From Raillietiella orientalis (lineage: Eukaryota): DNA of 64,000 nucleotides. The position numbers and the translations under genes are program-made. Under the pieces are notes generated by a model. That model worked only from the letters and a program-made list of their open reading frames with translations. It was not told the origin of the DNA and searched no databases. Below are positions 12,201 to 54,054 of the stretch, one piece after another; the stretch's first letter is position 1, and each line of letters begins with the position of its first letter. The stretch lies in assembly GCA_036172245.1 (NCBI GenBank), contig JAYWIR010000098.1, forward strand, positions 1 through 64,000, read 5' to 3'.

Positions 12201-14849
12201 GGAGGAAGAGACAATTAGCCTCGACGAGCCTTTTACCACCGGCGAAATTCTCGCCGGTATTAAAAGGCTCAAGAGGAGGAAAGCACCAGGAAAGGACGGC
12301 CTGCCCGCGGAGTGTTTCCAATGCTTCGCGACAGAGTTGGCAGCCCTAATGCTTCAGTTGACCAGGCTGATCCGAGACGAAGTTGATGTTTCCGCCTTGT
12401 TTCGGTTAGCCAGAGTGAGACTCCTCCCTAAGGGTGGAGACCTGAGAACATTGAACAATTGGCGTCATGTCACAATTGTGAACACGGATGCCAAGCTGAT
12501 TGCTGGACTGTGAGCTTCGCGTCTAGGACAGGTGGCAGACTCCATACTTACCTTGAAGCAGACATACGCTGTTCCCGGGCGAAGTATGGATGCCAACCTG
12601 TTCTTCGCGAGCACATGGTTCCATATGCAAAAATGTTACCATGAATCAGCGACAAGGATTGGCACCCGCACTTTGGGGCCGCAAGCAAGGCAAAAAACGA
12701 ACACCGGGGCAGGGAAGGGGGCCCTAGCGATCGCAGTCGATCTCCCCAAGGCGTTCGATCGCGTTGAGCAGGAGCTACTGTTGGAGATTCTAAGTCTCAT
12801 GGGCATTCCACCCTCTCTTCTCACCTACCTGCGCTCTTGCTGGCGGAATGCGCTAATCAATGTCTCCTTCAGCGGACAAACAACGTACGACTTGCCGGTG
12901 CGGCGAGGCATACGGCAGGGCGATAGCCTCAATCCCCTGCTCTTCAGCACCTACTTTGATTTGGTGCTGAGAGCGTACAGGGTGACTTTGGCTTCCTTGC
13001 CTAGCTCGTGCCCCGGCACGCCCGCAGTAGCTGCGTACGCCGACGATCTTCTGCTGATGTTGCTTATGTCCGCCCTGGCAGCCGCAGTCGAGGATTTCTT
13101 CGATCCGCTGTGCCGTGGGACTGGATTGCAGGTTAACAAGGCGAAGTCGTCGGTGGTACCGGTGGGTGCGACGTGGGATGGACGACTTGACTGGTTACGC
13201 ATGGGGATCCCCACGTTTAGGTACCTAAAGTACCTGCGTGTCCCTTTTGTGAAATTCTGCGTTGCAGAAGCCTGATCAGCTCGTCTCCAAAAGGTAGAGT
13301 TGGCAATCGGCCCGTTCCTGGAAGGCAAGTTCCTTCTGCCGGAACGGGCCGCGGTGTGTAACGCGTTCGCGGCTCTTATCCTCCGACGCATGCTGTTTGT
13401 GTGCCCCGTCCTCCGTGACCTAAAGAAGACGACTAAAGACCTTCTCCGCATCGCCCTCCGGGGCAGCGGGAGGCCTCGACCACCTCTTAAGGACATATGC
13501 GTTCCGCGTCGGGACGGTGGTCTTGGCCTCCTGACGCTGGAGCGCATGGAAATACAGCTGCGATGGCGCACCCTAGCCATCGCAGCAAAGACGTAAAACA
13601 CCCCCTGGTGCGTCCCGGCTCACATCCTCGCCAGCCATGTATCGAGGACGCAAGGACTCGCGTCTTTCCTTCTGTGCCCTGGTCGGAAGGTCAGGAGATG
13701 CGGCCTTCTCCTTGGGCGCATGGAATCCCTGGTGAGAGAAAACGTCTGGGCGGTATGCAGCCCCGCCAACTCCTCCGCTTGGCTGAAGGAATCCGTTGGG
13801 ACGTGATCCAATTTGAACTTCCAGACTGGACGTGAATGGAACCGCCTGCGACTCGGTCCCAACGCCTGCTGCACTCCATGGACCACTCTGGAGTGTCTCC
13901 CTAGGAGCACGTGGGCAGAAACCACTCGTTTGGCTTCGACGCTGCCCTTTCTGCAAAGGGCTCTAACCAGCGGCCGGACGCCGAAGTGGCACGTCTCCTG
14001 CCGTATCGCAGGCAGGAAAAAGAAATTGAGCGGTTGAACCATAGGTGAACTGGCAGATGCCACGACCCCGAGTGTCCTTCCGCGTGGACTTGTTAGATGC
14101 GGCAAGCTGCTCGGCATCCCGACGGATTACCTGAAGTGGCCCCCGGTATTAATCATATCAGGCTTCTTTTGCTAAAGTGGCAAGAGTCCAAACTGCTTCT
14201 TTTGCACTGGGGTTTACCCTGCAACGCGCGCCGGTTCCACTGGACGTGAGGAAGTGTAAGCCCTGAGTGTGCCAGGTGTGGGGAGCGGGAATTGCTCCTC
14301 TACCTTCTAGTTGACTGTGCTGCCATCCAACCCCTGTGGAATCGGTTCGGGACGACCCTCGGGCTCCCAATGGGCAGCGCGCCTAGAGACGTTCTTCGGC
14401 CCTTCTTCGTGCAGGACGTCCTGCAGCCCGCCGCATCCCTTGCAGCCCTCTGCTGCATCCGAGGCATCGTGGCGGCCTGGAGCGACATTTGCGACGAAGG
14501 AGTGGATGCCAACGAGTGGAAAATCATCCCGTATGCTGTGAGCTTCATGCGAAGAGCTGCGAAATGGCCCCATATGGGACGAACGCAGAAGGACCTAGAG
14601 GGCATCCTGCGAAGGATGGGACCTCTGCCTAGTGGATAGTGATCTCAACCCCTTCCTCCAAACTCCTTTTGTTTTTCTTTATTTTATTTCTTTTGTTTTC
14701 TCCCAAACTCCCCTCCACTGCCGAAGGGCGTCACGTTGGACTGCGTCCCGGCGTCCCGGCAGGTCGGGTGTTGTGCGTCCGTTAGTGGGACCTCATACCA
14801 CGTTTTTGTAGAGTTTCAATAAACGCCGAGGGCGTTCCCGGGAGGCAAC
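9230..14849 (+). mobile_element. Near full-length family A element (ORF1 9321-11075, ORF2 ~11075-14639, both disrupted)
   Basis: 5' GGACGTGTTTT at 9234, SWNVNG, YADD (~13035), C-terminal finger, AATAAA at 14818. Confidence 0.9.
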
Positions 14850-16480
14850 ACGAAATCCCCGGGGCAGGCGGTGCACAGGGAACTCGCAGTGCTCGCGAAC
14901 CAAGGCCTTCATGCGGTCCCAGTCTTGGAGATAACGGAGGATGACGCCTCCCAGTACTTGGCGGAGATGTTGCGCCGAACCTGAGATGCGCGTCCAGTTC
15001 CCGGGCAGGTGCCACGCCCTCGATGGTGGTTTTTTGTCGCGAGGCATAACCTCGAGTATCAACCGGAAATGGTCCCATAGCGTCGAAGGAAGTTTCCCTC
15101 GTCTGCCGACACTTGGGCACACGTCGGCGTCAAAAAAGACGTGGTCTACGCTTTGGACCATTTCCGGTAGGTCCCCCAACAAATTGCACGTGCGCATAGC
15201 AGCGCACAGCTCGTTGGCTGCGTCTTTTTGCCCGCAAGGTACACCTGAGAGAAGGTGGATGTTGAAATCCCCATCGATGAGATGCACTTTGCGTACGTTT
15301 GTATCCACCAGCCAGTCGCGCTTCAGGGTTTCGAGAAACTGGGAACGCTCCCCGTACCCGCATCCTCCGCTCAGAGCGTACACATTGGTCACGACAAGGT
15401 CGATCAATTCACCTAAGGATGAGCTGGACAACCGGACTGTCGTTGTCGAAGCGTACGTCCTTGACGAAGGCGGCGACTGCTGGCTTCATAAAAAAGGCGA
15501 CGCCACAGGTGCTGCAAGCACCGCATTGCTAAAACAGACGACCCCCTGCAATCCTCTCGATCTCCTGAGCGTTCTCCACGGTGATCACGTGGATCTCCTG
15601 CAGGAGCGCAAGGTCGAAGTCGCGCAGGGTGTCGGCCGTATCCCGCCTGTTGCCGTCGTCGCGCAGCCCGTTGACGTTCCAGCAGGCTACGCGGATCCTA
15701 CGGCGACAGGCGAGCCCAGGTGTAAATCCTGGGAAAGTGGCAATGGGTCTCCCGCCACCTGGTCGGGCGGGACGCTGTTAGGAGGGGATGCGTCGCGCAT
15801 TGCTTCTCCCTCCTCAATGGGGGCCTTGTCTTCGTCAGGGCCGTGCAGAGGAAGGGGGGTTTCACCCACCTGTACTTCCTCCTCCATGGGGATCGCCAGC
15901 TGCACGGTGTCGAGAAATAAGAGATTCTCACCCTCGCCTCCCACGCTGCTGGCTTTCCCTTCGGGTGCCAGTTGATCCTCCTCCTTCTTGATCCGTATGC
16001 GCCTCCTGGGATTCTAGGACTTGCGTCCCGTCTTCTTTGGTGACGCCTCCGTTGTGTAGGACGCACTTTTGGCATCCGGTTCGGTCTCATCTGCATCCGG
16101 AGACTTCCTTGCAGCCGGCCTTTGTAAGTTTTTTCGGGAGTTCTTCTCACGGCCTTGCAGTTCTGCCTCGAGGTCTTCCGCCGCCTGCAGGGAGGCGGCC
16201 TCCTCGATCGCGTCGAGCGCGGCGCGCGGTTCCCCCTCGGTTCCCCCGGAAGGGAAATTTCTGTCGCAGCTTCGGCGGACGCGAGGGGAAGATTGCAACC
16301 CCGGTGTCGACATCGAGTGCCACCACACGCTCTAATTTTACAGAATAAGCGCGAAAGTTTTCGCGCCACGGTTTTTCGCGCTGCGTTTTTGTTTTCACCG
16401 CGTTTTGCTCGGGACTATCGGGCTTTCTCCTGGCCTGTACCGTCTGCCAGCCATTTAGGCAGTCGGCCTTAACAACACGA
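14850..16480 (-). pseudogene. ORF1 C-terminus plus APE; 5' part of the element continuing at 9229-7101
   Basis: PMEE repeats, CWNVNG, NVYA, GDFN; reading stops at PRGF and resumes as RNERAY at ~9229. Confidence 0.8.
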
Positions 16481-23232: not shown

Positions 23233-25365
23233 ATTGAAATCTCCCGCTATCAGGTGAGCCTTTCGCACATCGGTATCCGCCAGCCAGTCGCGTTTCAGGG
23301 TTTCCAGCAGCCTGGTGCGGTCGCGGTACCCCTGTTTGCCGCTGGGGCCATACACGTTTGTGACGATTAGGTCGATCGAGTCGCACCAGCTGAGAGTCAG
23401 CTGACCGATCCGACCGTCGTCATCAAACCGCACGCCCTTTACGGCAGCGTCGATGGCCGGCTTCACGAAGAACGCGCCCCGCAGGTGTTTCGAAGGCCGC
23501 ATCGATAATACAACCGACCCCCCGCGATCGTCTCGATCTCCTGGGCGTCTGCCGCGGTGATCACGTGGATCTCCTGCAGCAGCGCCAGGTCGAGCTCACA
23601 CAGGGTGTCGGCCGTATCTCGCCTGTTGCCGTCGTCGCGCAGCCCGTTGACGTTCCAAGAGGCCGCGCAAATCCGACAGCGACTGGCGAGGCCAGGTGTT
23701 AGTCCTGGGAAAACAAGGATGCGGCGTCCGCCACCTGCTTGGGCAGGACGCTAGGTGGAGGGGGAGGGCGCACAGGTACTGAAGGCATCTGTTCCTCCTC
23801 CTCCATCGGTGCCGGCGCGTCGGGCCGATCACCCTCAGGTGGAGTCGCGCCTACCTGTTCGCCCTCCTCCATGGGTTCGGGCTGCTCAGGTTTCCCGAGT
23901 GGATGGAGGACTTCACCCCCCTGCTCACCCTCTTCCATGGGGGTGGCCGACTCGACGGCTTCCGGGCGTGGGTGTTCCCCTCCGGGATTCCCACGCTGCC
24001 GCTTCCTTCCGGCTTCTCCTCCTCGATGGTGGAGGGGAGGCGCCTCCTGGGTTTCTGGGACTTGCGTCCCGACTTCCTGGCGGGTGCCTCCTAGAAGAAG
24101 GATCCGCTTCCGGCCCCCAGGTCGCACTCATTTGCGGGGGCCTTCTTCGTCGGAGCCGACCTGCGTACTCCCTTGCGCGACGGGGTTTCGTGCTCGGCGA
24201 GCGTTGCTGCGAGGTCCTCCGGCGCTTTCTCGAAGGCCGCGTCTTCGCCAGCGGCGACCGTTGCCGCAGGCTGCTCCGCGACCTTATCGAGCGCGGCGTC
24301 ATCGCTGACGGCGAACGTTGCCGGGGGCTCCTCCGCGACTTTATCGAGCGCGGCGTCCTGGCTGTCGGCGCGCGAGTCTCGCGTCTCACCCTCTAAACGT
24401 AAAATGGGCTGGTCCACGCGAGCATTCATCGCGTCCGTATCAGCTGTTTGCTGAACATTGCCGCGGGCGGCCTCGGCAGGAACGGCTAAGCGTTCCAGTG
24501 CCACCGGGCATTCGCGGAGTTGTTTTTTTTTTGAAAGTGGCGCGGCTTTTTTCTTTTTGACGGCAGTTTTCTTCTCCGACTTTTCTTCTAACAACACTTC
24601 CTTTTTTTTTTCTTTTCTGGCCTGAATTAGCTGCCAACCCTTCTTTATTTCCGCGTTCACGGGAGCGCTTTCCCAAGACGCCTGTACGGGAGGAAGGGAG
24701 GCTGGCAGTCGGGAACGGCCATTTTCGCGAGCTGGTCTTACTACCAGCTTTTCACGTTTTCCCTGCGCCTTTTTGGCGGCAGGAGGAACCGGGGTGAGGC
24801 GCTTGTGGCACACGCGCCGAACGTAACCCTTTTCGCCGCATAGGTGGCACACAAGGTGCAGGCACCTTTTTCGTAGATGCCCTACTGCATTGCAGTAGCA
24901 ACAAAATTGGCGTTTCCCCACGTACCAGAGGTCCACCGCTTCTTGGCAGACCTCCAGCTCGTAGGGAAGCGCACCACCCTCTTTTACTGTGATACGCGCC
25001 GCAGCTTGACCTCCGAAAAGGCTATTGTAGCCTTGGAAAATCGTGGACTGCGGCCACAACGCGAGCACTTCTCCGTTCTTTTGTAGCTGTTCTCGAACCG
25101 CTGACCTCGTCATGCGACTGCAGATCCCAGTGAGATGGACCACCACCGAGCGGTCCATCGTTATCGGCAAGATCTTCCCACCATCAACGATCAGCGGGTC
25201 GGTGATCATGCGTCGGGCCAAGGTGATATCTTTGCATACCACCTCTACCCACTGGCAACGCTGCCATCGGACACCGACGATGTGCACGCCAAACCACTTA
25301 GCAAGAAACCACTCGCCTTGCCACGCAAACGGAGCGCAGGAAAAGCACGTCCTCTCTCTACAGAG
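23233..25365 (-). mobile_element. Family A element, 5' part: 5' UTR, ORF1 with ~320 bp deletion at ~25250, APE up to GDFN
   Basis: Close direct copy of 40059-42250; two knuckles; SWNVNG. Confidence 0.85.
24220..24362 (-). repeat. 57-bp coding tandem repeat (~2.5-3 copies, DAALDKVAE...), also at ~40790-40938
   Basis: TTATCGAGCGCGGCGTC at 24284 and 24341. Confidence 0.85.
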
Positions 25366-25545
25366 GGGATTTGGAGAAGGTGTCAGGAACGAGCGAACCT
25401 ACCTTCAGGCCCGCCGGTATTCCAGACGTCCTGACGTTCGTCGCCTGGCGGAATTCAAAGCTGAGGCGGAGAGGCAGGCCTGGCAGTCAGGCTTGGCCTG
25501 CTTCCTGGACCATCAGGGCCAAGAACGCTCCAGCCCAGCTCAGGT

Positions 25546-27764
25546 TTTTCACCCGGGTAAGCCGGTGCTTTTATTACTAAAATTTTGATATTACAAAATT
25601 TTGTGATGCGAACAAGTGCCTGCAAATGTTTTTGAAGTCGGCGTCAACGGCACGCTTTCTCCAAGGAGATCGCTGCCCAGTGGATGGCATTCCGGCTGGT
25701 CCTTCCTCTCCTAGACGTGGTCCACTTCTCCAAGATACCGCGCATGCAGCAGAGTACTGCTACGCTTCCGGAGGCTGGCAAGCCGTTTCGTGGAAGGCAA
25801 CACACTCCAGAATCAAGTGGGAAAAGGTCTCCCTTCTCCCGCACTCTGCACAACTAGCATCCACATTCCTAAATGTCCAGCGAGACAGGCGTGCTCTGCT
25901 TAAAAGTCCCCAGTGGAGCAGAAGCAACGCCGTCTCCTGCCACTGCAGGGGAAGGGTGCCGTTGTCCCAAGACGCTGGGGGCCACTTCACCTCCTCCGGA
26001 GGTATACCGAGCAGCGCGCCCCAGCGTAAAAGTCCGTTCGGCGGGACACTCGGGGTACTAGCGTCCGCTAGTTTCCTCGGCGTTCACGCCTTTAATGATT
26101 TTTTCCTGCCTCCGATGAGGCAGGACACTTCTCACGATGCCTGTTGGTGGCTGTCCGGAACTTTCCTGAGGAAGGGCAGCACTGGGGCAAGGGGGGTGAA
26201 GGAAGCCCACAGAAGTTTCCGTGGGTTGGTAACGATCTCCTGGAGTGGCTGACAAGCGTGCCTCCCTCTGCGGAGGCAGGAGAAGTCCTCATCGCTGGTG
26301 CCGTTGATCTTCGCCCATGCGGAAACGGACTCCTGAAGCCAGGTAGTCCAGTCCGCTGGGATGCAGGAGATCCAAGGGTTGTCTCTCATCAGAGCAACCA
26401 AATCCTGCAGCTGATAACCACAATGGTTCAGGCTGCCTTCGTTGGCTACCAGGATTGAAATCAATCCGGAGCAGCCGGTTGCCCTGTGAGCAAGGAGTCT
26501 TGATGGTGCACACCAGGGTGCTGTCCAAAACTTTGCCACAAGGGCAAGTTTTCTGAATTGGAGCTGTCGCTCCATGCGCTCCAGCGTCAGGATACCAAGT
26601 CCACCGTCCCTGCGTGGAGCGCACAAGTCTTTGAGTCCGACGCGGGGCCTCCGGTTGCCCCAGAGGGCTTTTCGTATAAGGCCCCTAGTCCGTGTCCTGA
26701 TTTGATATGGGGTAGGGCACACAAAAAGTAGGGGGCGAAGGAGGGAAGCCGCGAAAGCGTTCCATACCGTGGCCCGTTCCTGCAAGTGGAACTTGCCTTC
26801 CCGGAACGGGCCGATCGCCAGCTCCACCTTTTGTAGACGGTCGGACCAGGCTTCTGCAGAGCAGAAGTCCCACAACGGAACGCCAAGGTACTTGATGTAC
26901 CTGCCCGTGGGGATCCCCAAGCGGATCCAGTCCGACCGTCCGTCCCTCGTCGAGTCGGTGAAAAGCAACGACGATTTCGTCCTGTTTACCTGGAGGCCTG
27001 TCCCACGGTATAGCAACTCGAAGAAATCCTCAAGCGCCGATGCCGGGGTGGACCCGGGAAGCAGAAGCAGAAGATCATCGGCATAGGCCGACACGGCAGG
27101 CGTGCCGGGACACGAGCTCGGCAGGGTTGCCAAAGTCTCCCTGTATGCTCTCAGCACCAACTCAAAGTAGATGCTGAAGAGCAGGGGGCTGAGGCTGTCA
27201 CCCTGCCGGATGCCACGACGAACCGGCATGCCGAACACGTGCCGGCCGCTGAAATTAATATTGATGTACGCGAAGCGGTAGCAGGAGCGCAGGTAGGCCA
27301 GGAAGACGGCCGGAAATCCCAAGCGTTCCAGGAGCTCCAGAAGGAGCTCCTGGTCGACGCAGTCGAAAGCTTTACGCAAATCGACTGCGACCGCAAGGGC
27401 TTCAGGCTCCGCATCTTCTTCCCGGCTTCCCTCCTCCCTGTCAATGGAGAGTCCAGGACTTTCCCGACGTAGCTGCGCCTCGCGTTGTTGCAACTGCCAG
27501 AATGTGCTGGCGAGGAACAGGTTGGCCTCCATGGTTCGTCCGGGAACAGCGTATGTCTGTTCCGGACTGACCACGGAGTCCGCTACCCGTCCCACGCGCT
27601 CAGCTCACAGTTTGGCGAGCAACTTTGCGTCCGCATTCACTACAGTGATGGGTCGCCAGTTGCCAACGTTGCGCAAGTCTCCTCCCTTAGGAAGGAGACG
27701 TACTCTAGCTGACCGGAACGAGTTGGGGACATCCCCACGTTCACGGATAAGCATACATAGTTTT
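25546..27764 (-). mobile_element. 5'-truncated family A element with a perfect 14-bp TSD
   Basis: AGCCCAGCTCAGGT at 25532-25545 and 27765-27778; 3' hairpin at 25546-25575. Confidence 0.92.
26132..27595 (-). CDS. Reverse transcriptase core, 487-aa open frame
   Basis: QTYAVPGR, DLRKAFD, GIRQGDSLSPLLF, YADD, KYLG, DGGLG. Confidence 0.85.
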   Translation of the reverse strand: MGRVADSVVSPEQTYAVPGRTMEANLFLASTFWQLQQREAQLRRESPGLSIDREEGSREEDAEPEALAVAVDLRKAFDCVDQELLLELLERLGFPAVFLAYLRSCYRFAYININFSGRHVFGMPVRRGIRQGDSLSPLLFSIYFELVLRAYRETLATLPSSCPGTPAVSAYADDLLLLLPGSTPASALEDFFELLYRGTGLQVNRTKSSLLFTDSTRDGRSDWIRLGIPTGRYIKYLGVPLWDFCSAEAWSDRLQKVELAIGPFREGKFHLQERATVWNAFAASLLRPLLFVCPTPYQIRTRTRGLIRKALWGNRRPRVGLKDLCAPRRDGGLGILTLERMERQLQFRKLALVAKFWTAPWCAPSRLLAHRATGCSGLISILVANEGSLNHCGYQLQDLVALMRDNPWISCIPADWTTWLQESVSAWAKINGTSDEDFSCLRRGRHACQPLQEIVTNPRKLLWASFTPLAPVLPFLRKVPDSHQQAS

Positions 27765-30526
27765 AGCCCAGCTCAGGTAAGCCGCATCATGCAGGAGTTT
27801 TCTTCCCCCCTGTACGCGTCATTAACACCCGAGTGCCAATTCCCGCAGCGGTTGCTGCCGGATGGGGCTCCCGCGATCGGGGAGGAAGTTTGTTCCAGGT
27901 TGTCGGAACCATTTACGGTGACAGAGATTGTCTCCGCCATAAGTAAATTAAAGACAAGAAAGGCACCAGGGGAGGACGGCCTGCCCGCGGAGTTTTACAA
28001 ACACTTCGCGAAAGAGCTTGCACCCCTGGTGCTCAGGCTAAGTACGCTGATCCACGAACACGGCGAAGTTCCCGCCTCGTTCCGATCAGCAAAAGTACGT
28101 CTCCTGCCGAAGTGAGGAGACCTACGCAACATTAGCAACTGGCGTCATATCGCAGTGGTGAATGCGGACGCAAAGTTGTATGTCAAATTGTGGCCTGAGC
28201 GTTTAGGACCGGTGGCGGATTCCGTGATCAGCCCGGAGCAAACATACGCTGTTCCCGGGCAAACCATGGAATCCAACCTACTCCTCGCCAGCACATGGTA
28301 ACAGTTGCAACAGCGCGTTGCAGAGGACGGTCAAGGGAGCCTTGAGCACCCCTCTGACCAGAGAGACCCGGTTCAGGGTGAGGCGGAATCAGCGGGAGCC
28401 TTCGCCGTCGCTGTCGAATTGCGCAAAGCATTCGACTGCGTCGACCAGCATCTCCTTCTGGAGCTCCTGGAACGAACGGGATTCTTGTCCGTGCTTCAGT
28501 CGTACCGGCGCTCCTGCTGGCGCAACGCGTACATAAATATTGGTTTCAGCGGCCGGCACGTGTACGGCGTGCCAGTGCGCCGCGGCATCCGGCAGCCTGA
28601 ACCCCTTGCTCTGCAGCATCTACTTTGAGTTGGTGCTGAGTGCATACAGGGTAACTCTGGCAACCCTGCCTAACTCGTGTCCCGGCACGCCTGCCGTTTC
28701 GGCCTATGCAGACGATTTTCTGCTGCTGCTTCCCGGGTCCACCCCGGCGAGTGCGCTCGAGGATTTCTTCGAGCTGCTGCGTCGCGGGACGGGCCTGGAG
28801 GTGAACGGGGCGAAGTCGTCTATGGTCTTTGTCGGTACGGCGTGGGCTGGTCGGTCGGACTGGATCCGCTTGGGGAACCCCACGGGCAGGTGCTTCAAGT
28901 ACCTCGGCGTTCCGTTGGGGGACTTCTCCGCAGCAGAAGGCTGGTCCGACCGTCTCCGAAAGGCAGCGTTGGCGATCGGTCTGTTCCAAGAAAGCAAGTT
29001 TTACTTGCAGGAACTGGCCGCAGTGTGGAACGTTTTTGCGGCCCCCCTTCTACGCCCTTTACTTTTTGTGTGTCCCGTTCCTTATTTTGTCAGGAAAAGA
29101 GCAGCGGACCTCCTACGGCCAGTCCTTTTGGGCAAAGGGAGGTCCCGTTTGCGTCTTAAAGACTTGTGCGCTCCACGTAAGGACGGTGGACTTGGCCTTC
29201 TTAAGATGGAGCGTATGGAAGTACAATTTCAGTTCAGGGTTCTCGCCCTTGCATCGGAATTGTAGGACACGCCTTGGTGCAGTTCAGCACGACTTCTATC
29301 CCAGCGAGCCTCAGGATATGGCGGACTTTCTTCGTTTCTCTGGGCGCGCGACCACAGACAAGCACACTCCGGCTTTCATCTGCGGCGCATGGCCGCTGTG
29401 GTTCGGAAGAACACCTGGATCTCCTGCGTCCCAGGGAACTACTCGGCATGGTTGCACGAGTCAGTCTTCACTTGGGAAAAGTTTTACGTTCCGGCGGTCA
29501 CAAAAAACACTTGCCCGAAAAAGCACGCCCGCTGGACGCTACAGGAGATCGTGCAGTCCCACGATTAGCTTCTGTGGGCCCTGATAACCCCACTTGCTCC
29601 TGTGCTGCCCTTCCTACAAAACGCTAGAGACAACAGGGAGCAGTGGAAATGGACCGTGTCCTGCACCATCGGAAGTAGGACACAAAAGATTAAGGCGTCG
29701 ACATCTCGGCAGCTAGCGGACGCTGCGACGCCGAGTGTCTTGCCCAACGGATTCCGACGCTGGGGAGAGCTACTCGGACTATCTGCGGAGGAGATGAAGT
29801 GGCCCCCAGCATCTTGGGATAGTGACTTCCTTCCCCTGAAATGGCAGGAGGTGGCGCTGCTCGTGATACATTGGAATTTACCCTTCAAGGCACGCCTCTC
29901 TCACTCCACTCGGGGGGCTGTGGATTCCCAGTGGGACCGGTGCGGGGAGAAAGAGACATTCCCCCACCTCCTTATTGAGTGCATTGCTCTCCCCCCTCTC
30001 TGGGATCGTCTTGAAGCAATCCTGGACATTCGCGGAGGCGGCCCTAAAGACGTTTTTAGGCGACTCTTCTTGCGTGATGCCTTGTCCCCTCTTGCTTCTG
30101 TGGCAGTTCTTTGCTGCATTAGAGGGATCGTGTCGGCTTGGAACGCGACAACAAGAAGGCACCAAGCTTGCGGCAATGTTGTACATTAAACTCGCCTTTT
30201 GTGAGAAACATTTGCAGGTGGAGACACCTGGGTGCACAACGGACGCAGCTTGTGAAGATCCTGAACAGGATCTAGAGGACCTTTAAGCGTGCAATGTGAT
30301 TCCCTTCGCGCCCCTCCCTCCTTAAACATAAGTACCCTCTTCAACTTTAACATTTTTTTATTTGTTTCGTTTTTTTCTTCCCATTTCCGCGCGTTGGAAG
30401 GACCTCGCCGGTTTAGAACTGGCAAGAAGCAGGCTGCTTTGTGCTGAACCATCAGGTTCTTCACCCGGAGATTACATGTATTTTTATTTTTTTTAAAATA
30501 AATGCCCCGGCATATTTGGGTAAAAA

Positions 30527-37800: not shown

Positions 37801-40058
37801 GGTCCATAGAGGCGAACCTGTTCTTCGCGCGCACGTGGCTCGAGCTGCAACGTCGCGTAGCGCATGACAGCCAGGCAACCGCATCTGCGGCTGCCAGGGC
37901 TAGGCGTCGCTGCATTCGGCCTGAGGAAGCGCCGGGTGGCTTGCGGTCGCGGTCGATCTCCGCAAGGCGTTCGTTTGCGTAAATCAGGATCTCCTGATGG
38001 AGCTCCTTGAACGCCTCGGTCTCCTGGTGACCTCGTGGCGTATTTGCGCGTTTGCTGGCGCCACGCGCTCATTTCTATCTCTTTCAGCGGCTGTTACGTG
38101 TACGGCGTGCCGGTGCGGCGGGTCATCAGGCAGAGCGACAGTTTAAGCCCGTTGCTCTTCAGCATCTTCTTTGAGTTGGTACTGAGGGCGTACATGCTGA
38201 TGCTGGCCAACCTGCTGAGCCTTTGTCCAGGAACGCCGTCCGTGGCGGCCTATGCTGACCACCTGCTTCTCCTCTTACCCATGACCACTCCGGCGTCCAG
38301 ACTCGAGGATTTCTTTGAGCTGATCCGCCGAAGAGCGGGCATGAGCGTAAACAGGAGCAAGAGCGTGGTCGTACCCATAGGTGCGGCGTGGGAGGGGCAG
38401 TCCGAGTGGATCCGCCTGGGGATCCCGACCGCTTCGTCCACCCAATATCTGGGCGTTCCGCTGGGAAACATCAGTCCAGTGGAAGTGTGGTCGGACTGCC
38501 TTCGGAAGGCTTCGAATGCCCTGAGCCCGTTCCAGAATGGCAGGTTCCTCCTGTCGGGGCGGGCCGCGATATGTAACACCTTCGTTGCCCTCCTCTTGCG
38601 GGCTTCTGTTTCTCGTTTGCCCGCCCCCCTACTCGGCGAAGCTCCAGGCCCACAGCCTGTTAAGGAACGCTCTGTGGGGTCCTGCGAGGTCCAGGATCTG
38701 CCTGAAAGACTTGGCGGCTCCTCGTCGGGATGCTGGCTTAGGCATCCTGACGCTGGAGAGAATCGAGCTGCAGGTGCAGCTTCGAATGTTGGCCCTGTGC
38801 GCCAACCTTTCGTCCACTCCGAGGTGCGTTCCTGAGCGCCTGCTCCTGCGGCGCTGCACCAGCAGCGACGGACTTCTGTCGCTGCGTCCACTCACGGAGC
38901 GCCTCACGACAAGTTTCGGTTTTTGTTTCAAAGCGCTCTACTGGCTATTAACAGCTTAGGAATGGATCTCCTGGCTCTTAACTAAGTTTAAATACTGGCG
39001 GGAGGAACCGTTGTATGGCTGGGCAAAGCACCAGGATGTTTCTTTCCTTGAACTCCGTTGCGTTCAACTCTCCCCGTACTGCACGGTGGATAAGGTCTGC
39101 AGCAGCCAGGAGAAGTGGACCGGCCTGGCCCTCACCCCCCTTGCCGACGCACTGTCAGCCCTCAGGGCAACAGATGACAGCTGCCAATGGGGCGTCGGCG
39201 AGGATGATGGGAGGTCGCCTTCACCATTGCAAGAACAACACGACCTATTGGCGGCTGGAGGACTTGCGAGCTGGCAGACGCCGCCACGCCTCGCCACATC
39301 TCGAAGGGTCTCCTTTGGTGTAGTGAACACTTGAGTGTGCCCCCCGAAGAACTTGTGGTCCCTCCCTTCTGTTTGAACACTTCTGTGTTCCCTATTCCGT
39401 ATAAGCAGGACAGGTGCAGGTTGCACTGGGGTTTTCACTCCAACCAGCGGATGAACCCGGTTTTCCGGGATAGTTGTCTCCCCAAACTGTAAGCGGTGCG
39501 GTGAAGAGGAAACGCTCCCTCACTCGCTTTTGGACTGCGGTGCCCTCCAAGGACTTTGGCGGAGGCTGGCCTCAGCTCTCCTGCACCAGTGGGACGCCGC
39601 GAGGCACTTGATGCGCAGCTTCTTCACGCCAGGCGGCCTGTCTTTGGGTGCTGTCGTTGGAATCGTGTGTTCCACTGTGCCATCGACAAGGCCCACCGAG
39701 AGTTGGAGAAGCTGGCCAGCGTTCGTCAGCCCAGCAGATTAGCCATCGCAAGCATGTCGTTGGCTGCCGAGTGGGCCCATCTTCCACAGGACGTAAGGAG
39801 AGAGATCGCCGGCATCCATCGTCGGTTTTGAATGGAAGGAACGGACTCACCAAAGACCCCTGTCCCTTGCCCTCCATATTTCTATTTTTATTTTTTATAG
39901 TAGTGTATTTGTGGTCCCTTCCCTCTTGTTCCGCACTTTCAGCATACCGACCTGCTTGTCGGGGATCCGACCCCCTTCGTATCTTGTTTTTCCCTTTGTC
40001 CGAAAACTCTGTTCCCGGATAGTTAGTAATAAACGCCCCGGCGCACCCGGGTGGCAAA
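34899..40058 (+). mobile_element. Family A element: ORF1 (5' lost, to 36347), disrupted ORF2 (36248 to ~39830), 3' UTR
   Basis: CSNCGKEGHRTGKC, GDFN, SDH, YADH, AATAAA 40028 plus hairpin. Confidence 0.88.
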
Positions 40059-42250
40059 CAGCCGACCCCCCGCGATGGTTTCGATTTTCTGGACATCCGC
40101 CGCAGAGATCACGTGGGTCTCCTGCAGCAGCGCCACGTCGAGCTCACGCAGGGTGTCGGCCGTATCTTGCCTGTTGGCGACATCGCGCAGCCCTTTGAAA
40201 TTCCAACAGGCCGCGCGATTCCGACGGCGACTGGCGAGCCCAGGTGTTAGTCCTGGGAAAACGGCGATGCAGCTTCCAGTCCTGGGAAAACGGCGTTGCG
40301 ACGTCCGCCACCTGCTGAGGCAGGACGCTAGGTGAAGGGGGAGGGGGGACAGGTACTGAAGGCACCTGTCCCTCCTCCTAAATCGGTGCCGGCGCGTCGG
40401 CCGGATCACCCGCAGGTGGAGTCGCGCCTACCTATTCGCCCTCCTCCATGGGTTCGGGCTGCTCAGGTTTCGCGACTGCAGGGAGGACTTCACCCCCCTG
40501 CTCACTTTCCTTCATGGGGGTGGCCGACTCGACGGCTTCCGGGCGTGGGTGTTCCCCCTCCGGGATTCCCAAGCTGCCTCTTCCTTCCGGCTTCTCCTCC
40601 TCGCTGGTGGAGGGGAGGCGCCTCCTGGGTTTCTGGGACTTGCGTCCCGACTTCCTAAGGAGTGCCTCCGAGGAGAAGGATCCGCTTCCGGCCCCCAGGT
40701 TGCACTCACCTGCGGGGACCTTCTTCGTCGGAGCCGACCTGCGTACTCCCTTGCGCGACGGGGTTTCGCGCTCCGCGAGCGTTGCTGCGAGCTCCTCCGC
40801 CGCTTTCTCGAAGGCCGCGTCTTCGCCAGCGGCGACCGTTGCCGCAGGCTGCTCCGCGACCTTATCGAGCGCGGCGTCATCGCTGACGGCGAACGTTGCC
40901 GGGGGATCCTCCGCGACTTTATCGAGCGCGGCGTCCTGGCTGTCGGCGCGCGAGTCTCGCGTCTCACCCTCTAAACGTAGAATGGGCTCGTCCACGCGAG
41001 AATTGATCGCGTCCGTATCAGCTGTTTGATGAACATTGCCGCGGGCGGCCTCGGCAGGAACGGCTAAGCGTTCCAGTGCCACCGAGCATTCGCGGAGTTG
41101 TTTTTTTTTTGAAAGTGGCGCGGCTTTTTTCTTTTTGGCGGCAGTTTTCTTCTCCGACTTTTCTTCTGGCAACACTTTCTTTTTTTTTTCTTTTCTGGTC
41201 TCAACCAGCTGCCAACCCTCCTCCATTTCCGCGTTCACGGGAGCTCTTTCCTCCAACGCCTGTACGGGAGGAAGGGAGGCTGCCAGTCGGGAACGGCCAT
41301 TTTCGCGAGCTGGTCTTTCTACCAGCTTTGCACGTTTTCCCTGCGCCTTTTTGGCGGCAGGAGGAACCGGGGTGGGGCGCTTGGTGGCACACGCGCCGAA
41401 CGTGACCCTTTTCGCCGCATAGGTGGCACACAAGGTTCGGGCACCTTTTTCGAAGATGCGCTACTGCATTGCAGTAGCCACAAAATTGGCGTTTCCCCAC
41501 GTACCAGAGTTCCACCGCTTCTTGGCAGACCTCCAGCTTGTGGGGAAGCGCACCTTCCTCTTTTACGGTGATACGCGCCGCAGCTTGACCTCCGAAAAGG
41601 CTATTGTAGCCTTTGAAAATCGTGGATTTCGGCCACAACGCGTGCACTTCTGCCTGCTTTTGCAACCGTTTGCGAACCGCTGACCTAGTCATGCGACTGG
41701 AGATCCCAGTGAGATGGACCACCACCGAGCGGTCCATCGTCACCGGCAAGATCTTCCGACCATCAATGATCAGCGGGTCGGTGATCAGGCGTCGGGCCAA
41801 GGTGATATCCTTGCATACCACCTCGACCCGCTGCCCGCCGCTGAGGACGCAGAGGCCGTCGAGATCTTTTTCAAAAATATTGGCGTCCTGCAGCGCATTC
41901 GTAAAGGCGCGTGCAGTTCGTCCATCGAAAAGGTTGCCTACCTTGTAGACTAGCGAGGGTTTATTACCCGCTTTCTTGTAGGCTTCCATCTCGGCCATGG
42001 CTTCCACGCTAGGCGCGGCCTCCATGGCGCTCCAGGACCTCGGCGTCGCCGGGGACGATTCCGGGGCGGATGCCCCTGATCCAGTAGGCTGTGGGGACGA
42101 ACAAGCCTCCATCACGCCTACTTCCATCGCGGTGTCCTCTGGCAACGCTGCCATCGGACACCGACGATGTGCACGCACAAACCACTTGGAAAAAACCACT
42201 CGCCTTGCCACGCAGGCGGAGCGCAGGAAAAGCACGTCCTCTCTCCACAG
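40059..42250 (-). mobile_element. Family A element, 5' part: 5' UTR, ORF1 (ATG ~42154, frameshifted), start of APE
   Basis: MAALPED start, two knuckles, LLQETH; GGACGTG at 42233-42239. Confidence 0.88.
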
Positions 42251-45151
42251 AGGGAATTTGGTGAAGGGGCACGCAATAAACAAGCGTATTAGCACGCCCG
42301 TCGTTTCGCGAGGACCACTGAAGTCCGTCGCTTGGCGGAATACAAAGCCGGGGCCGAGCGTCAAGCATGGCAAAGCGGTCTGCCCAGCGTGCTGGATGAT
42401 TTGAACCAGGAACACTCGGAGCCGGCTTCGATACGTCGCCTCGTGCGCAAATTTTACTCCTCTCTTCACGCAAGGGCACCTGCGGAGTGGGACGCGGCCA
42501 TAGATGAGGAGGAGATAGAAAGCTTCGACGAGCCTTTTACGACCGGGGAAATCATCACCGTGTTTAATAGGCTCAAAAGACGTAAGTCGCCAGGGGAGGA
42601 CGGCCTGCCTGCGGAGTTCTTTTAGTGCTTCTTTGCAGAGCTGACTTCTCTGGTGCTCAAATTGACATCGCTGATCCGAGACCAAGGCGAGGTTCCTTCC
42701 TTGTTTCGGTCAGCCAGGGTGAGGCTCCTCTCTAAGGGTGCAGACCTCAGGAAATTAAGCAACTGGCGTCCGATCAGGATAGTGAACATGGACGCCAAGT
42801 TGCTATCCGGACTGTAGGCTGCGCGACTGGGACAGGTAGCTAACAGCTTCGTCAGCCCGGAACAGACGTACGCTGTTCCCGGGCGAAGCATGGAAGCGAA
42901 CCTGTTCTTCGCCAGCACATGGTTCAGTCTACAATACGAAGAAAAAGAGAAGAAAAAAGAACAAAATGACGACAAACTTAATTCGGGAACGCCAGCGCGG
43001 CAAACAAGGGACTGCCGGGAAGGAAAGAAAGCTTTAGCGATCGCAGTCGATCTGCACAAAGCGTTCGATTGCGTGGACCAGGAACTCTTTCTGGAACTCC
43101 TGGATCGCATGGGCTTTCCGGGCACTTTATTGGCTTACCTGCGCGCCTGCTGGCGCAATGCGATCATTAACTCATATCTCAGAGGACAGCATGTGTTCGG
43201 CGTACCGGTGAGGCGCAGCATCCGGCAGGGCGACAGCCTGAGTCCCCTACTGTTCAGCACCTATTTCGAACTGGTGCTGAGAGCATACAGGGTGACATTA
43301 ACTGCTTTGCCAAGCTTGTATCCAGGTACGCCGGCTGTGTCGGCGTACGCTGACGATCTTTTGCTCCTGCTGCCCATGTCGGCCCCGGCTTCCGCATTAG
43401 AAGATTTCTTCGACTTGTTGAGCCGTAAAACAGGACTACAGGTGAACAGGACGAAGTCATTGCTGGTTGCTGTTGGTGCTACGTGAGCAGGACGACCTGA
43501 TTGAATCCGCCTGGGGATTTCTACGCACAGGTACTTAAAGTAGCTCGGGGTTCCGTTGGGGGACTTTTGTCAGTCAGAAGCCTGGTCAGGTCGTCTTCAA
43601 AATGTGGAGTCAGCGATCGGCCCGTTCCTGGAAGGCAAGCTTCACTTGCCGGAACGGGAAGCGGTGTTGAACGCGTTCGCGGCCCCCCTTCTTCGCCTCC
43701 TGCTTTTTGTTTCCCCGTACCCCGTGAATCAAGAAAAAGAACGAAGGACCTCCTACGTATCGCCCTGTGGGGCGGCGGGAGGTTTCGTGTGCCTTTAAAA
43801 AAATTGTGCGCTCCACGTCGGGGCGAAGGTCTCAGCGTAGTGACGATGAAGCGGATGGAAACACAGCTGCGATGGCGTACTCTAGCCATCGCAGCGGAAA
43901 TGTGGAACACTCCGTGGTGCGTACCGGCCCGCCTTCTCGCCAGACGTGTGTCCGGGACTGAAGGACTCGCGTCTTTTTTTCTGTGCCTTAACCGGAAAAA
44001 AAGATGCGGACTTCTTCTGGGACGCATGGCCACCTTGGCAAAGGAGAACGCGTGGATGACCTGCAGCCCCGCCATCTCCAGCGCATATCTGGAAGAAAAA
44101 GTTGGAAGGTGGGCAAACATAAACAATATCAGTGAAGAATCCTGCAACGGCCTCCGTACCGGCATCTACACCCGCTGCACGCTGCGGAACATGATCGTGT
44201 GTCTCGCCAGAAGCACATGTGCGGAGACGACCCCACTGGCCACGGCGCTACCCTTCCTACGGAGGGCGCTCCAAAATATTCGGAAGCCGAGATGGCAAGT
44301 CTCCTGCCGGATAGCAGCAAAGAGAAGGATCTCACTGGGTGGATCATGAGGGAACTGGCTGACGCCGCGACCCCAAGAGTTCACCTGCATGGACTACGGA
44401 GATGGGGCTAGCTGCTTGGTATCCCCACAGATGACCTAGATTGGCCTTCGTCGTTCATTGATTCATCAATCCTCCCTCTAATGTGGCAGGAAACGGCGCT
44501 GTTGTTGTTGCACTGGGGTCTTCCCTGCAACGCGCATTGTCACCACTGGACGTTGGGGAATGTTAAACAGAACTGTGCAGTGTGAGGGAAGAAGCAATGC
44601 CTTCCCCATCTGTTAGTGGACTGCGCTGCCCTCCGGCCATTGTAGGAACGTTTTGCTACGAACCTTTCAATGCTGGCAGGCTGCACCCCCAGATACGTTA
44701 TAAGACTCCTCTTCGTGCGACACGCCCTGACACCAGCCTCAGCCCTGGCTCCACTTTGCTGCCTCCGAGGGATTGTGGCCGCGTGGAGCGCAGCCAACAG
44801 AGGAAGCAGCGACAGGGATCCCATCGTACACGCTGGTCGATACCTGCGAATCGCGATCTGCTGGTTCCATCTGGAGACAATGGATAGGGACCTCAAGGGC
44901 ATCCTCGAAAGGATGGTCTCTTCCTCCAGCGGGCTGTGATCCCTTACCGGAGCTCCAATTAGTTTCTTTTCGTTTATTTCTTTTATTTTTTTTTTCGTTT
45001 TAACCCCCTACCCCCTTTGCTGCCGAGGAGAGTCGAGCCGGCCTGCGAGCCGGCTTCCCGGCAGGTTCAAAGGACTATTGGCCGTAGCGGGGCTTCGTAC
45101 CGCAGAAAAAAAGTGTTTAGGAATAAACGTCCAGGAGTGACCAGGTGAAAA
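42251..45151 (+). mobile_element. Family A ORF2 from linker to 3' end
   Basis: DLHKAFD, YADD (~43345), AATAAA 45122 plus hairpin. Confidence 0.88.
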
Positions 45152-45547
45152 CTTTTCCGTGTCCAGTGATGACAGCGTGAATTGCAGGGCAGTCTTCAGT
45201 GCAACAGCATCAGCGCCGAATCCTGCCATTTTAAAGGAAGGATCCTGATTCCAGTTATTACTGGGGACCACTTCAGGTCATCAATCGTCATGCCGAGCAG
45301 CTCGCCCTATTCTTTTGTCCTTGCGAAAGGAAGCTGTGGGTTGTGGCGTCCGCTAGCTGTCCCATTGTCCAACCGCTCAACAGTTTTTCGCTGCCTGCGA
45401 TTCGGCAAGAGACTTGCAACCTTGGGGTCCGGCTGCTGACGATTGCCCTACGTAGGAAGAGTAGCACCGTCGCCAGGCAAGTCGCCTCTGCCCACGTGCT
45501 TCTGGCTGCACACTACACGATATCGCGTAGAGTGCAGCGGGCGTATC
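45152..45547 (-). pseudogene. Post-RT ORF2 fragment
   Basis: Homologous to the LPLKWQE/LHWGLPCN region of other copies. Confidence 0.7.
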
Positions 45548-46094
45548 GGCCGCCTTTGTTTCGAAGAGAAAGGTCGTGTTGGCCAACTTGTCCTCAAGTG
45601 GTCCGAATCGATCGACCTGGTCGTTGCGAACATCTACGCGCCGAGCGGTGGCCAACATTACCCTTAGCGACTCGCATTCTTGGGTGGCCTGCGTATCCGC
45701 TGGCTTGCCGACACCGGCCCTAACGTGGCGCACCTCCTTGCAGGAGACTTTAACGTCCACCTGCTAACAGAGGAGAGATGCCGCTTGAGTGAGAAGCAAC
45801 TGGTGAGCGAGGAATGCGCGTCCGTGCGCGTGCAAAACTTGCTTGCTGGTGAGCCCGCGATGGAGAGATCGCCGGACCATGCGTTCCTTGATGAACACAT
45901 GCTCTCACGAGTAGGTAGGAGAGGGTGGCTGATGTCCGCGATTTCGGATCATCCGAGACTGGAGTTTCAGCTCCTCCCGCCTAACAAAGGGCCTCCGAGG
46001 AAGGTCTGAAGGCTGCCGGCCGACTAACTTAGCAATTCGGAGGAGGCGGAGCATCCTCGCCAAAATCTCCGGGCTTCGCCATCCGTGAACTCGA
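45548..46094 (+). pseudogene. APE fragment, continuing at 51632-51885
   Basis: NIYAP, GDFN, SDH; ends AIREL and resumes LEVWDDLKRSVREF. Confidence 0.85.
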
Positions 46095-49000
46095 TTTTCA
46101 ACCGGTTGCGCCGGTTCGTTTATTCTTTAGAATAAAACAAACGTTGGTGGCTGACCAGGTGGTCCGGCCACGCACTGGTATACAAAATTAAGCCTACCGG
46201 GTCAGCGGTTTGTATTCCGGCACGGTCCACCGCCACAGGAGAGGGTCCCAGGACAAAACAAAAAATAAAGCAAAAAAAAGAAATATATAAATTTAAGATC
46301 TGGGAGGCACGGGAAGGGATCACAGTCTGCTGTGGGGCCGTTACATCCGTTGCAGGATGCCAGCAAGCTGTTTTTGGATGTTTAAATCCAGATGGATCCA
46401 TCCTGTCGCCGTCCGCATAAATTCGGCTGCGCACTGGACGGCACCCTTATCGCGAGGTTCTCTCGTTGCTTTGCTCCACGCAGCGACGATCCCGCGAAAG
46501 CAGCACAGTGCTGCTAAAGCGGCTGAGGTCCAAAGGGCGTCGCAAACGAAGAGGGATCTGATTGCGTTTCTGGGGTTGCCACAGGGGTTACCGATTGTGG
46601 CGACAAAACGGTTCCAAAGGGGCTGAAGAGGCACACAATCCAACAGAAGGTGAGTGAGGGACTTCCGTTCTCTTCACCTCGCACAATTAGGGCTCAACGC
46701 TCCCCAGGTCCAATGGTGTCATCGTTCGTTGCAGGGGACTCCCCAATGCAGCAACAATACCGCCCACTCCTGCCATTTTAAGGGGAGGGAGGAGATGTTC
46801 ATCAGCACAGGGGGCCACTTTAATTGTTCCCGCGGAACATTTAGCACCTCGATCCAGCGCAAAAGTCTAACAGAAGTGGTAGTTTGGGCCCCGATATCGC
46901 AGAGAATTCCCGTTTTCCATTCCCCGATCTTTTTCTCCGTACCAGAGATTGTGACGTAAACATCCCATTTCGCAGCAGTGTTGCTGTTTAAATGTTCCGC
47001 AAGCGAAAACAGCATTGAAGCGAGGGGAGTTTTTCTTGCCCACGCTCGTTTTGGGGGGTTCTCCAGGACCTCTGGGAGCGTCAGGCGGTCATTACGGGCG
47101 AAAAATTGTCTCTGCCCTTCTTGAATGCGTTGCTGGTTCTCCTTGCCCACGTCTGAACCGTTTCCTGCAGCCATGCAGGTCCGTTAACGGGGCGACAGCA
47201 GAGCCATTCTGCGTTCTTCCTCATCAGGTCAGTCACTCTCCGTAGCTGCAGCCCGCAGTGACCGTCTTGGCGGCGCCGACGGAGCGCAAGGAAGGATGAC
47301 AGTCCCACCTTGCCTGTAGCCTGCTCGACGAGGAGACGTACGGGCTCGCACCAACTACTATTCCAATATTTCGCTACTAGGACGAGTAACCGAAACTGGA
47401 GCTGGAGCTCCAGCCGCTCTAGCGTCAGGAGGCCGACACCGCCGTCCCGACGCGGAGCGCTCAAGTCCGCAAGCCGGACTCCGGCCCTCCCATTACCCCA
47501 TAGGTCAATCCTTAGGTGGTCCTTCGTCCGCTTTTTAGTCTCTGTGGGGGGGGACAACCGAAAAGCAGGGAACGGAGGAGGGGCGCCGCGAATGCGTTCC
47601 ACACCGCGGCCCGTTCCCTGGAAAAACCTGCGGCCTTGGAACAGGCCGATCGCCTTCTCCACCTTTTGAAGGCAGCTCGACCACGCATCCGAAGGGAGAT
47701 AATCGCCCATCGATACACCGAGGTACTTGAAGTCCCGTACCGTGGGGATCCCCAAACGGACCCATTCCGGCTGCCTTGCCCACGCCGAACCGATTGGCAT
47801 GACGGACAACTTCGCCCTGTTCACCTCAAGCCCGGTTCCCCGACTTAGCAGGTCGAAGAACTCTTCTACCGCCTATGCCGGGGTGGACATAGGGAGCAGC
47901 AGCAGTAGGTCGTTTGCATATTCTGACATTGCGGGCGTACCGGAATAGTCGCGCGGCAGGTGCGCTGGAGTTTTTCTGTACGCCCTCAGTACCAAATCGA
48001 AGTCGGTACTGAAGAGCAAGGGACTCAGGCTGTCTCCCTAACTTATGCCGCGTCGCACTGGTACGCCGTGCACGGTGTGTCCACTGTAAAAGATCTGTAT
48101 GAGCGCGTCGCGCCAGCAGGATCGCAGGTAGTTCAGCAAGGAGACCGGGAAGCCCAAGCGTTCCAGGAGCTCCAGGAGGAGCCTCTGGTCGACACAGTCG
48201 AATGCTTTCTGGAAATCGACTGCGACTGCGAGGGCTCCCTCCCCCCCCCAACAATACCGTTTCCTAGCGGCGGACATTCCGGAAGTCCGGTTGCCCATCC
48301 TGACCCTTTCCTGTTGGAGCGCGAAAAAGGTGCTGGCGAGGAAGAGGTTGGCATCCATGCTACGCCCGGGAACAGCATATGTCTGCTCCGGGCTAATGAA
48401 GTTTTTCGCTAACCGCCACAGGCGTTGAGCCCACAATTTAGCCAGCAACTTGGCGTCTGCGTTTATCACGGTAATCGGTCGCCAGCTGCTCATGCTCCGA
48501 AGGTCTCCTCCCTTAGAGAGGAGACGCACCTTTGCCGAACGAAACGGGGCGGGGACGTCGCCCGTTTCGCGGATCAGCAAGGTGAGTTTATTCACCAGAA
48601 AAGTGAGCTCTGCCGAGAAACATTGAAAAAATTCCGCTGGCAGGCCATCCTCCCCAGGAGCCTTTCGCCTCTTGAGCTTTCCGATGGCCGAGATAATCTC
48701 GCCCATCGTAAAAGGCTCGTCGAGGGTCTTTCTACCTTCCTCCCTGAACGCCGGAGCGCCTTCCGGAAGAAGAAGTCGCGAGACATCCCGTTCCGGTGAA
48801 GCGCGCGCGTACAGGGAGAAGTAGAATTTTTTTAATAAGGATTTTACGTGGGCGGAACCGAGTGCTCCGAACCCTGGTCGTCCAGTAAGCTGGCCGACCC
48901 GGATTGTCACGCCTGCCTTTTGGCTCCCGCACGGTGTTCGGCTAGCCTGCGTACGTCTGGTGTTCGCGTGTAACATCGAGATTGTAAATACCATCTTTCG

Positions 49001-54050: not shown

Positions 54051-54054
54051 CGGT

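Follow-up and report, generated by a model that had tools for sequence, protein, structure and literature searches.

The locus described here raises the question of whether two related retrotransposons were inserted, on separate occasions, at exactly corresponding nucleotides in two diverged copies of the family to which they belong, and of what could have directed them there. It lies in a stretch of 64,000 nt from Raillietiella orientalis (NCBI GenBank assembly GCA_036172245.1, contig JAYWIR010000098.1, positions 1 to 64,000 of the forward strand), hereafter called the window. Two sister elements, B1 and B2, interrupt two target copies, A1 and A2, in the linker between the endonuclease and the reverse transcriptase (RT) of the second open reading frame (ORF2). 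A preliminary description of the window, made from the letters alone, had reported that both elements (PPEEVKWP type) have antisense 3' ends directly after the GT of the same linker valine codon, and alignment confirmed this (CAGGT at 25545 in A1, GACGT at 51885 in A2). Feature coordinates are collected in Table 1.

Six-frame mapping of a reference copy (D, 17325-23232, minus strand) showed that the window is tiled on both strands by fragments of one retrotransposon family of the kind without long terminal repeats (non-LTR). The copies differ by 10-40%, every placed insertion lies within another copy of the family, and the GC content is ~57%. The full-length element (~5.9 kb) starts with a conserved 5' terminus, roughly C-R-A-G-W-G-C-G-R-A-C-G-K-G and then a run of T in full-length copies, followed by a 5' untranslated region (UTR) of roughly 100-130 nt. 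A CCHC knuckle (CX2CX4HX4C) is visible in translations of ORF1, for which no Pfam match was obtained at E 0.01. In ORF2 the order is as follows: apurinic/apyrimidinic endonuclease (APE; PF03372, E=4.4e-12 on copy D, 20536-21264), a linker of ~220 amino acids (aa), RT (PF00078, E=1.7e-17 on B1, 26132-27604) and a C-terminal zinc-finger region (20.2 bits against PF13966, zf-RVT, under the cut-off of 27.5). The 3'UTR (110-600 nt) ends in AATAAA, 4 nt, a short CCGG...CCGG stem-loop and ~6 nt such as TGAAAA. The loop of 4-5 nt changes fast, RNAalifold gave 7 pairs, 2 of them with compensatory changes, and the stem-loop terminus is probably the recognition signal of the RT. A poly(A) tail, typical of L1 proper, was absent from all 11 3' ends found in the window. 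The family is classed as an APE-type, L1-like non-LTR retrotransposon (long interspersed nuclear element, LINE) without poly(A). Hallmarks of target-primed reverse transcription (TPRT) are present, namely duplications of 14 bp at B1 and 5 bp at another insert, C2, and the 5'-truncated copies B1, A2, I, J and F.

At A1, both sides of the insertion are preserved: B1 is flanked by a perfect target-site duplication, and the target picks up in register at 27779 and reaches its own 3' terminus at 30526. When duplications of at least 10 nt were sought at nine motif-marked 3' ends, that of B1 was the only one found. The RT frame of B1 is open for 490 aa, its ORF2 ends near 25655, leaving a true 3'UTR of ~110 nt, and no other fragment in the window matches its 3' part above 72%.

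At A2, the upstream part of the target (A2a) and the linker part (A2L) are separated by C2; one contig of a public sequencing run (X1, described below) joins 46073 to 51632, as in an A2-type copy without C2. The ORF2 of B2 ends near 52230, which gives a 3'UTR of ~345 nt. On its 5' side, B2 is interrupted at RT aa ~75-83 by the canonical 5' end of element E (boundary between 54044 and 54057), so the duplication of B2 and the downstream half of A2 lie outside what the window contains. No second copy of the A2 flank was found in a search of the window, which returned 12 matches at ≤3 mismatches against 9.3 expected, the sole exact match being the site itself.

MAFFT alignment of 13 linker rows placed the ends of the two target linkers (A1L and A2L) in one column with no gap in its neighbourhood, and a second alignment with 11 rows gave the same result. 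The column follows the GT of one linker valine codon, and uninterrupted copies read through it; the two intact readings given in the preliminary description, ECSASAEVRR and KCSCADEVCR, were recovered in copies D and J, respectively. Both 3' ends lie on the minus strand and are joined directly to the sense strand of the APE-RT linker. Each junction has a one-base ambiguity, in that the T could pair with the terminal A of the element; this ambiguity is equal at both junctions, so the column is identical either way. The flanks of A1L and A2L are identical at 99/165 positions overall (60%) and at 19/30 positions beside the junction.

The targets had been said to belong to different subfamilies, and the phylogeny agreed: in the linker tree A1L pairs with copy I (100/98) and A2L with D, J and F (100/99), and a clade of A1L and A2L was rejected by the approximately unbiased (AU) test (p=3e-11). 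Copy I, the nearest relative of A1 (87% identity over 164 columns), is uninterrupted at the site, as are D, J and F. In a tree of 11 copies covering the region from RT to the 3' end, B1 and B2 are sisters (100/99), 0.42 substitutions/site apart, against 0.23 between A1R (the remainder of A1) and I (0.14-0.23 between A1 and I across trees). Both B-lineage copies among these 11 sit at the shared site. Over 422 codons, B1 and B2 have 70.8% nucleotide identity, synonymous divergence (dS) of 0.735 and nonsynonymous divergence (dN) of 0.267, with a dN/dS ratio (omega) of 0.36 (confidence interval, CI, 0.27-0.47); the differences by codon position are 0.27/0.20/0.39, highest at third positions. Had a single insertion given rise to both, these dead, 5'-truncated copies would have diverged neutrally. 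In a control pair identical by descent (K and C1), omega was 0.89-1.09 and the codon positions were flat. The 3'UTRs of B1 and B2 align only in their proximal part.

The shared column could also have come from one ancestral insertion, if its composite junction had been copied later by segmental duplication, in-register recombination or gene conversion and the flanks then replaced. Such processes do act in the window. Element G with its flank (3063-5556) is an inverted duplicate of C2 with A2a (49742-45560), at 89-91% identity and with the 3' junction in common; the two agree throughout the first 60 nt of flank, and the counterpart of 48032-46344 is deleted from within the copy at 3063. Locus A1 is itself of mosaic make-up. 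Its stretch 24700-25385, which comprises the 5' end of an antisense element, the filler bases ACAGAGGG and 20 nt from the linker start, shares ~93% identity with locus L (compared with 41280-42420). A1L resembles L up to ~25381; from ~25383 on, A1 is 87-95% identical to copy I (31700-32141) and 60-65% to L. The switch lies in the conserved GFGEG motif, a sign that subfamilies recombined in register, or that templates were switched between them, at this motif. In-register recombination, named in the preliminary description as a case that would overturn independence, does occur at A1, ~150 nt upstream of the B1 site; it leaves the B1 junction and duplication untouched and fails to explain the shared junction.

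A copied junction is also at odds with the left flank of A1, which stays I-like as far as the junction (57/60 in the final complete bin, 5/6 in the bin that follows), and with the intact duplication there. Gene conversion of the insert into A1 is unlikely because of this flank and because B1 and B2 have diverged more than A1 and I. Given the AU rejection, the uninterrupted I, the 29% divergence of B1 and B2 with an omega of 0.36 and not ~1, and their unlike 3'UTR lengths, a single copied event is considered very unlikely. The two integrations were independent, as had been proposed.

For the distribution of insertion sites, 13 events were placed on the reference: ten 3' junctions and three canonical full-length 5' ends adjoining a target, which the conserved 5' terminus makes distinguishable from truncations. 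Ambiguous joins, among them M/A2 at 45545, c9226m/Q at 7089 and P/C1 near 16506, were omitted. Ten of the 13 inserts are antisense to their target (two-sided P=0.09), and eight of these ten fall within ~900 nt of the element, from APE aa 61 to linker aa 82. Three clusters, one lineage in each, account for seven of the antisense inserts: the site of B1 and B2; HS1, with H and K; and HS3, with F, R and J, whose junctions lie in APE aa 61-74. All inserts at HS1 and HS3 are antisense. H and K belong to sister lineages (98/95, ORF1 tree) and represent separate events, since their dS is ~1 and omega 0.23; at the H insertion, ~5 nt of target were lost. D is joined by J and F in the RT tree and by R and J in the ORF1 tree (100/100). 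A fourth event of the D clade, the insertion of D into C1, is in the sense orientation at APE aa 183.

These positions are clustered. In a simulation of uniform placement, the true availability of target along the element being only roughly even, the probability that two of the ten 3' junctions coincide exactly (same orientation, no more than 1 nt apart) was P=0.012; four same-orientation pairs within 30 nt were observed among the 13 events (P(≥4)=0.0017-0.0028). If nicking were confined to GT sites, of which the two strands of D contain 647, P for a coincidence of the three events at such sites would be ~0.005. A departure from uniform placement, as in a nested-element hot spot, was thus observed, on a small sample; a true preference for the shared site is only moderately supported. 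Of the position-specific integration suggested earlier, the identity of the site stands, and a preference for it is plausible on a small sample.

We propose the following mechanism. B1 and B2 would stem from two TPRT insertions separated in time, each due to a different member of a single lineage. In each, an older and already dead target copy would be nicked in its sense strand after the (G)T of the same linker valine codon, and the 3'-OH of the nick would prime cDNA synthesis starting at the 3'-terminal base of the incoming RNA; because a sense-strand 3'-OH primes from the RNA 3' end, the insert would be antisense. A second nick, 14 nt away, would have produced the duplication in B1. The machinery of the B lineage (endonuclease and whatever positions it) would prefer this spot, and other lineages in the nest would favour other spots in the APE N-terminus and linker. 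That reuse of one column in ~60% identical targets reflects a lineage-specific preference of the endonuclease or ribonucleoprotein (RNP) for few spots in the ORF2 of its own family is, on balance, probable, if only just. The anatomy of the junctions, the duplication, the common column, the independence of the two events and the non-random clustering within the window are observed; that the machinery, not chance, picks the site is inferred, as is anything said about what it recognises.

Two independent insertions could also have reached the same base by chance under a weak, generic endonuclease preference, with no hot spot; this is possible, yet clearly short of probable, and the locus would then be an ordinary LINE nest. 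There is one exact pair only (P ~0.012 when all positions are usable), it was singled out by a reader scanning for oddities, and no motif or fold marks the site. Chance would have to accommodate as well two further lineage-pure antisense clusters in the same 900-nt part of the element (joint P ~0.002-0.003) and the use of the site by both B-lineage copies present.

Several further points weigh against a lineage-specific site preference. If GT-A sites alone were usable (101 in the 5.9-kb element), the three-event coincidence would have P ~0.03. No clear nick-context motif emerged across the ten placed 3' junctions, where the base before the nick is T in 5/10 and no longer consensus exists, and the target-site changes vary (duplications of 14, 5 and ~8 bp, and one deletion of ~5 bp). 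The 13 events come from one 64-kb window chosen post hoc, and the list is non-exhaustive, ambiguous head-to-head and deletion junctions having been left out. Reference positions of the non-clustered events were taken from tblastn coordinates, and three of the 13 events in the clustering are 5' junctions, at which the nick is placed only to within a duplication of unknown length. B2 is without a verifiable duplication, the downstream sequence of A2 being missing from the window. Finally, in a neutral control, the segmental duplicates C2 and G, omega was 0.56 (CI 0.35-0.87), which makes the dN/dS argument for independence weaker than its CI suggests.

Guidance by homology or structure, raised in the preliminary description, found no support in the tests made. 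Simple homology priming is excluded by the antisense orientation: the primer strand is identical in sense to the RNA and not complementary to it, so homology within the family cannot prime. DNA folds of 10 copies around the site shared no hairpin or nick position; local palindromes in D and A2 differ in their centre and are absent from J. One sequence match was treated as a lead. The 3' tail of B1 (25546-25575) and the bottom strand of the pre-insertion target (25521-25545 / 27779-27803) have a run of 9 nt in common, CGGCTTACC, that spans the nick; among random 50-nt windows, 0.7% contain a match of at least 9 nt. Relative to the CATAT loop of B2 and A1, that of B1 has two base differences, each of which adds to the match.

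This match would suit an RNA-guided choice of site, in which the 3' stem-loop of the RNA pairs with the strand to be nicked or the body of the RNA forms an R-loop with the antisense strand and exposes the sense strand. The R-loop version also predicts antisense inserts, as in 10/13 events, a bias that is not significant. When tails were compared with the 25 nt following each junction in a 9 x 9 grid, however, the longest match was 6 nt, and the true pairs shared 3-4 nt in 7/9 cases (5 for J, 6 for L). The loop of B2 matches its known flank by one base, priming began at the last base of the RNA and not at a paired stretch, and full-length inserts at other sites run past the homologous region. 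Guidance by RNA is held to be improbable.

Chimeric joins made during assembly of a hard-to-assemble repeat nest would be another source of a false coincidence. The region is highly repetitive, run X1 consists mostly of diverged relatives, and its listing, which covered 6 of the 404 loose ends and 15 of the 28 joints, showed no contig across 51885/51886. Such an artefact is scarcely credible in view of the clean duplication at B1 with the target resuming in register, of the two joins falling exactly at a complete element terminus, and of a divergence between copies (10-40%) that suffices for unambiguous assembly.

A bolder extension of the site preference favoured above, tentative and rather doubtful, is that each lineage has evolved a nucleotide-precise antisense landing site in the APE and linker of its rivals' ORF2: linker aa 82 for B, GFGEG for H and K, and APE aa 61-74 for D, J, F and R. 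New inserts would then disable competitors and build the nest, and the 3' stem-loop RNA may help to read the site.

Nested-element hot spots and self-nesting LINE clusters are kinds of arrangement already known. In the account of human nested elements given by Levy, Schwartz and Ast (2010, PMC2836564), insertions occur at specific positions (single nucleotide) and in preferred orientations within older elements, across ~300,000 events. The hot spots described there include self-insertion, Alu into Alu at one position, and some are not canonical endonuclease sites; the Alu hot spot is attributed to an L1 endonuclease site beside the A-rich linker (PMC2836564). Compared with that account, the present case comprises 13 events in which an autonomous LINE hits its own ORF2, at antisense spots that differ between lineages and that no A/T-rich site explains.

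Zepp and ZeppL, L1-type LINEs of green algae, are described as clustering by insertion into their own copies, with frequent 5' truncation (PMC8226300, PMC3446292); how they target their own clusters is left unexplained there (PMC8226300, PMC3446292, 10.1101/2025.03.28.645958). The family in the window likewise nests in its own copies, a likeness at the level of description. As they are described, Zepp clusters are tandem arrays of 3' ends, whereas 10/13 events here are antisense and most lie in the APE/linker region. Unlike Zepp and ZeppL as described, the window elements end in a stem-loop without poly(A). For the targeting of self-nesting LINEs, recognition of chromatin and recognition of sequence have been proposed. 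Lineage-specific reuse of a single position at ~60% identity, if true, would point to recognition of the element's own DNA, and sequence-directed self-targeting could explain the growth of centromere-like LINE clusters.

The R1, TRAS/SART and Tx1 groups are APE-type LINEs that have evolved a preference for a position in a repeated target, and related lineages may differ in it. Strictly site-specific LINEs place nearly all copies in one sequence. By comparison, the 13 events in the window occupy at least nine positions and the targets at the shared site are 60% identical, so strict specificity does not apply here and there is at most a preference. In Trypanosoma brucei, the RHS genes form a multi-copy family whose diverged members carry ingi/RIME inserts at a matching relative position; that target is a host gene family hit by ingi-clade elements, whereas here the family of elements is its own target. 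A far from exhaustive literature search found no paper on antisense sites in the ORF2 of a LINE that are specific to its lineages.

Table 1. Coordinates of the two shared-site insertions, the other recurrent sites and the element termini in the window
Feature	Coordinates	Strand	Description
A1L, left part of target A1	25360..25545	+	linker aa ~20-82
Left copy of B1 14-bp target-site duplication	25532..25545		AGCCCAGCTCAGGT
B1, 5'-truncated insert	25546..27764	-	linker aa ~167 to 3' end; PPEEVKWP type
B1 3' terminus	25546..25575	-	AATAAA, 4 nt, stem-loop CCGGCTTACCCGG, tail GTGAAAA; no poly(A)
Right copy of B1 target-site duplication	27765..27778		14/14 match to left copy
A1R, remainder of target A1	27779..30526	+	linker, RT, C-terminal zinc-finger region, 3'UTR, terminal stem-loop; sister of I
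A2a, upstream part of target A2	45545..46094	+	APE aa 98 to ~2 codons before linker reference start
C2, full-length antisense insert in A2	46095..51631	-	5-bp duplication CTCGA at 46090-46094 and 51632-51636
A2L (A2b), A2 linker up to aa 82	51632..51885	+	in-frame stop; groups with D, J, F
B2, sister of B1	51886..54056	-	intact 3' terminus: stem-loop CCGGCATATCCGG, tail TTGACAA; PPEEVKWP type
P, upstream half of target split by H	14849..15741	-	HS1; ends ...GGATTTCGTG inside GFGEG motif
H, full-length insert antisense to P target	9232-14848	+	HS1
c9226m, other half of P target	7089-9231	-	HS1
L, target	42247..45151	+	HS1; linker starts ~20 nt upstream of the GFGEG column of H; adjoins canonical 5' end of K
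K, antisense element	40058-42246	-	HS1; canonical 5' end against L
E, target	54057..55977	+	HS3; cut at APE aa ~66 (...GCGCAGGAGAT) by 3' end of antisense F
F, antisense element	55978-59926	-	HS3; 3' end in E
APE of K	40058..40265	-	HS3; cut at aa ~74 (...GGTCGGCTGT) by 3' end of J, 27 nt downstream of F site column
J, antisense to K	34899-40057	+	HS3; 3' end in APE of K
G, target	3052..5021	+	HS3; starts 16 nt upstream of F nick column; adjoins canonical 5' end of R
R, antisense element	2056-3051	-	HS3; canonical 5' end against G
Canonical 5' ends	3051, 23232, 25359, 42246, 51631	-	
Canonical 5' ends	9232, 54057	+	
Element 3' ends	5021, 14848, 30526, 34898, 40057, 45151	+	
Element 3' ends	17325, 25546, 46095, 51886, 55978	-	

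Two other composite readings of the junctions were discarded. The 5' junctions of K, C1 and H were considered as one duplicated composite, and this was dropped: they are canonical full-length 5' ends, and H is independent (omega 0.23). K and C1 have the filler bases at the junction in common; in C1, ~300 nt coding for the ORF1 N-terminus, present in K and H, are gone (25252-25260 compared with 41834-42135). The junctions R|G and E|F were considered as two sides of one insertion, which was rejected because G is a 90% copy of C2 and the APE of E, as we read the alignment, is only ~65% like that of C2.

Scanned with the 3'-terminus motif, the window yielded 10 matches (2.4 expected), of which nine lie at element ends; the tenth, at 57850 inside an RT, was taken as chance. 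When metagenomes were scanned with the 3'-terminus pattern, 120 loci were obtained, all of them judged to be chance matches because 0/120 matched the element proteins by tblastn. In a large protein collection, the closest protein (60% identity) came from a short metagenome contig and all further matches were at ≤27%. The nearest named relatives were plant L1-type RT proteins (25-27% identity), no named algal relative was found in the protein searches, and a protein-atlas look-up returned generic RT clusters only. Run X1 (share of words 0.13) was compared with 36000-55999 at 80% likeness and 531 contigs matched, of which 8/531 were ≥99% identical and 381/531 <90%; judged from these identities, X1 appears to be a related genome or a sample rich in the same LINE family.

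A far more distant LINE is present at the window end (61477-63813, plus strand), with APE, linker and RT 25-30% identical to D at the protein level. Between 25360 and 40057, elements form a head-to-tail chain in the sense orientation, in which each may either have inserted into the ORF1 of its successor or have come to rest at its predecessor's 3' end: the 3' end of A1 (30526) adjoins I, truncated mid-ORF1, and the 3' end of I (34898) adjoins J, truncated at ORF1 aa ~184, an arrangement that resembles the tandem pattern described for Zepp.

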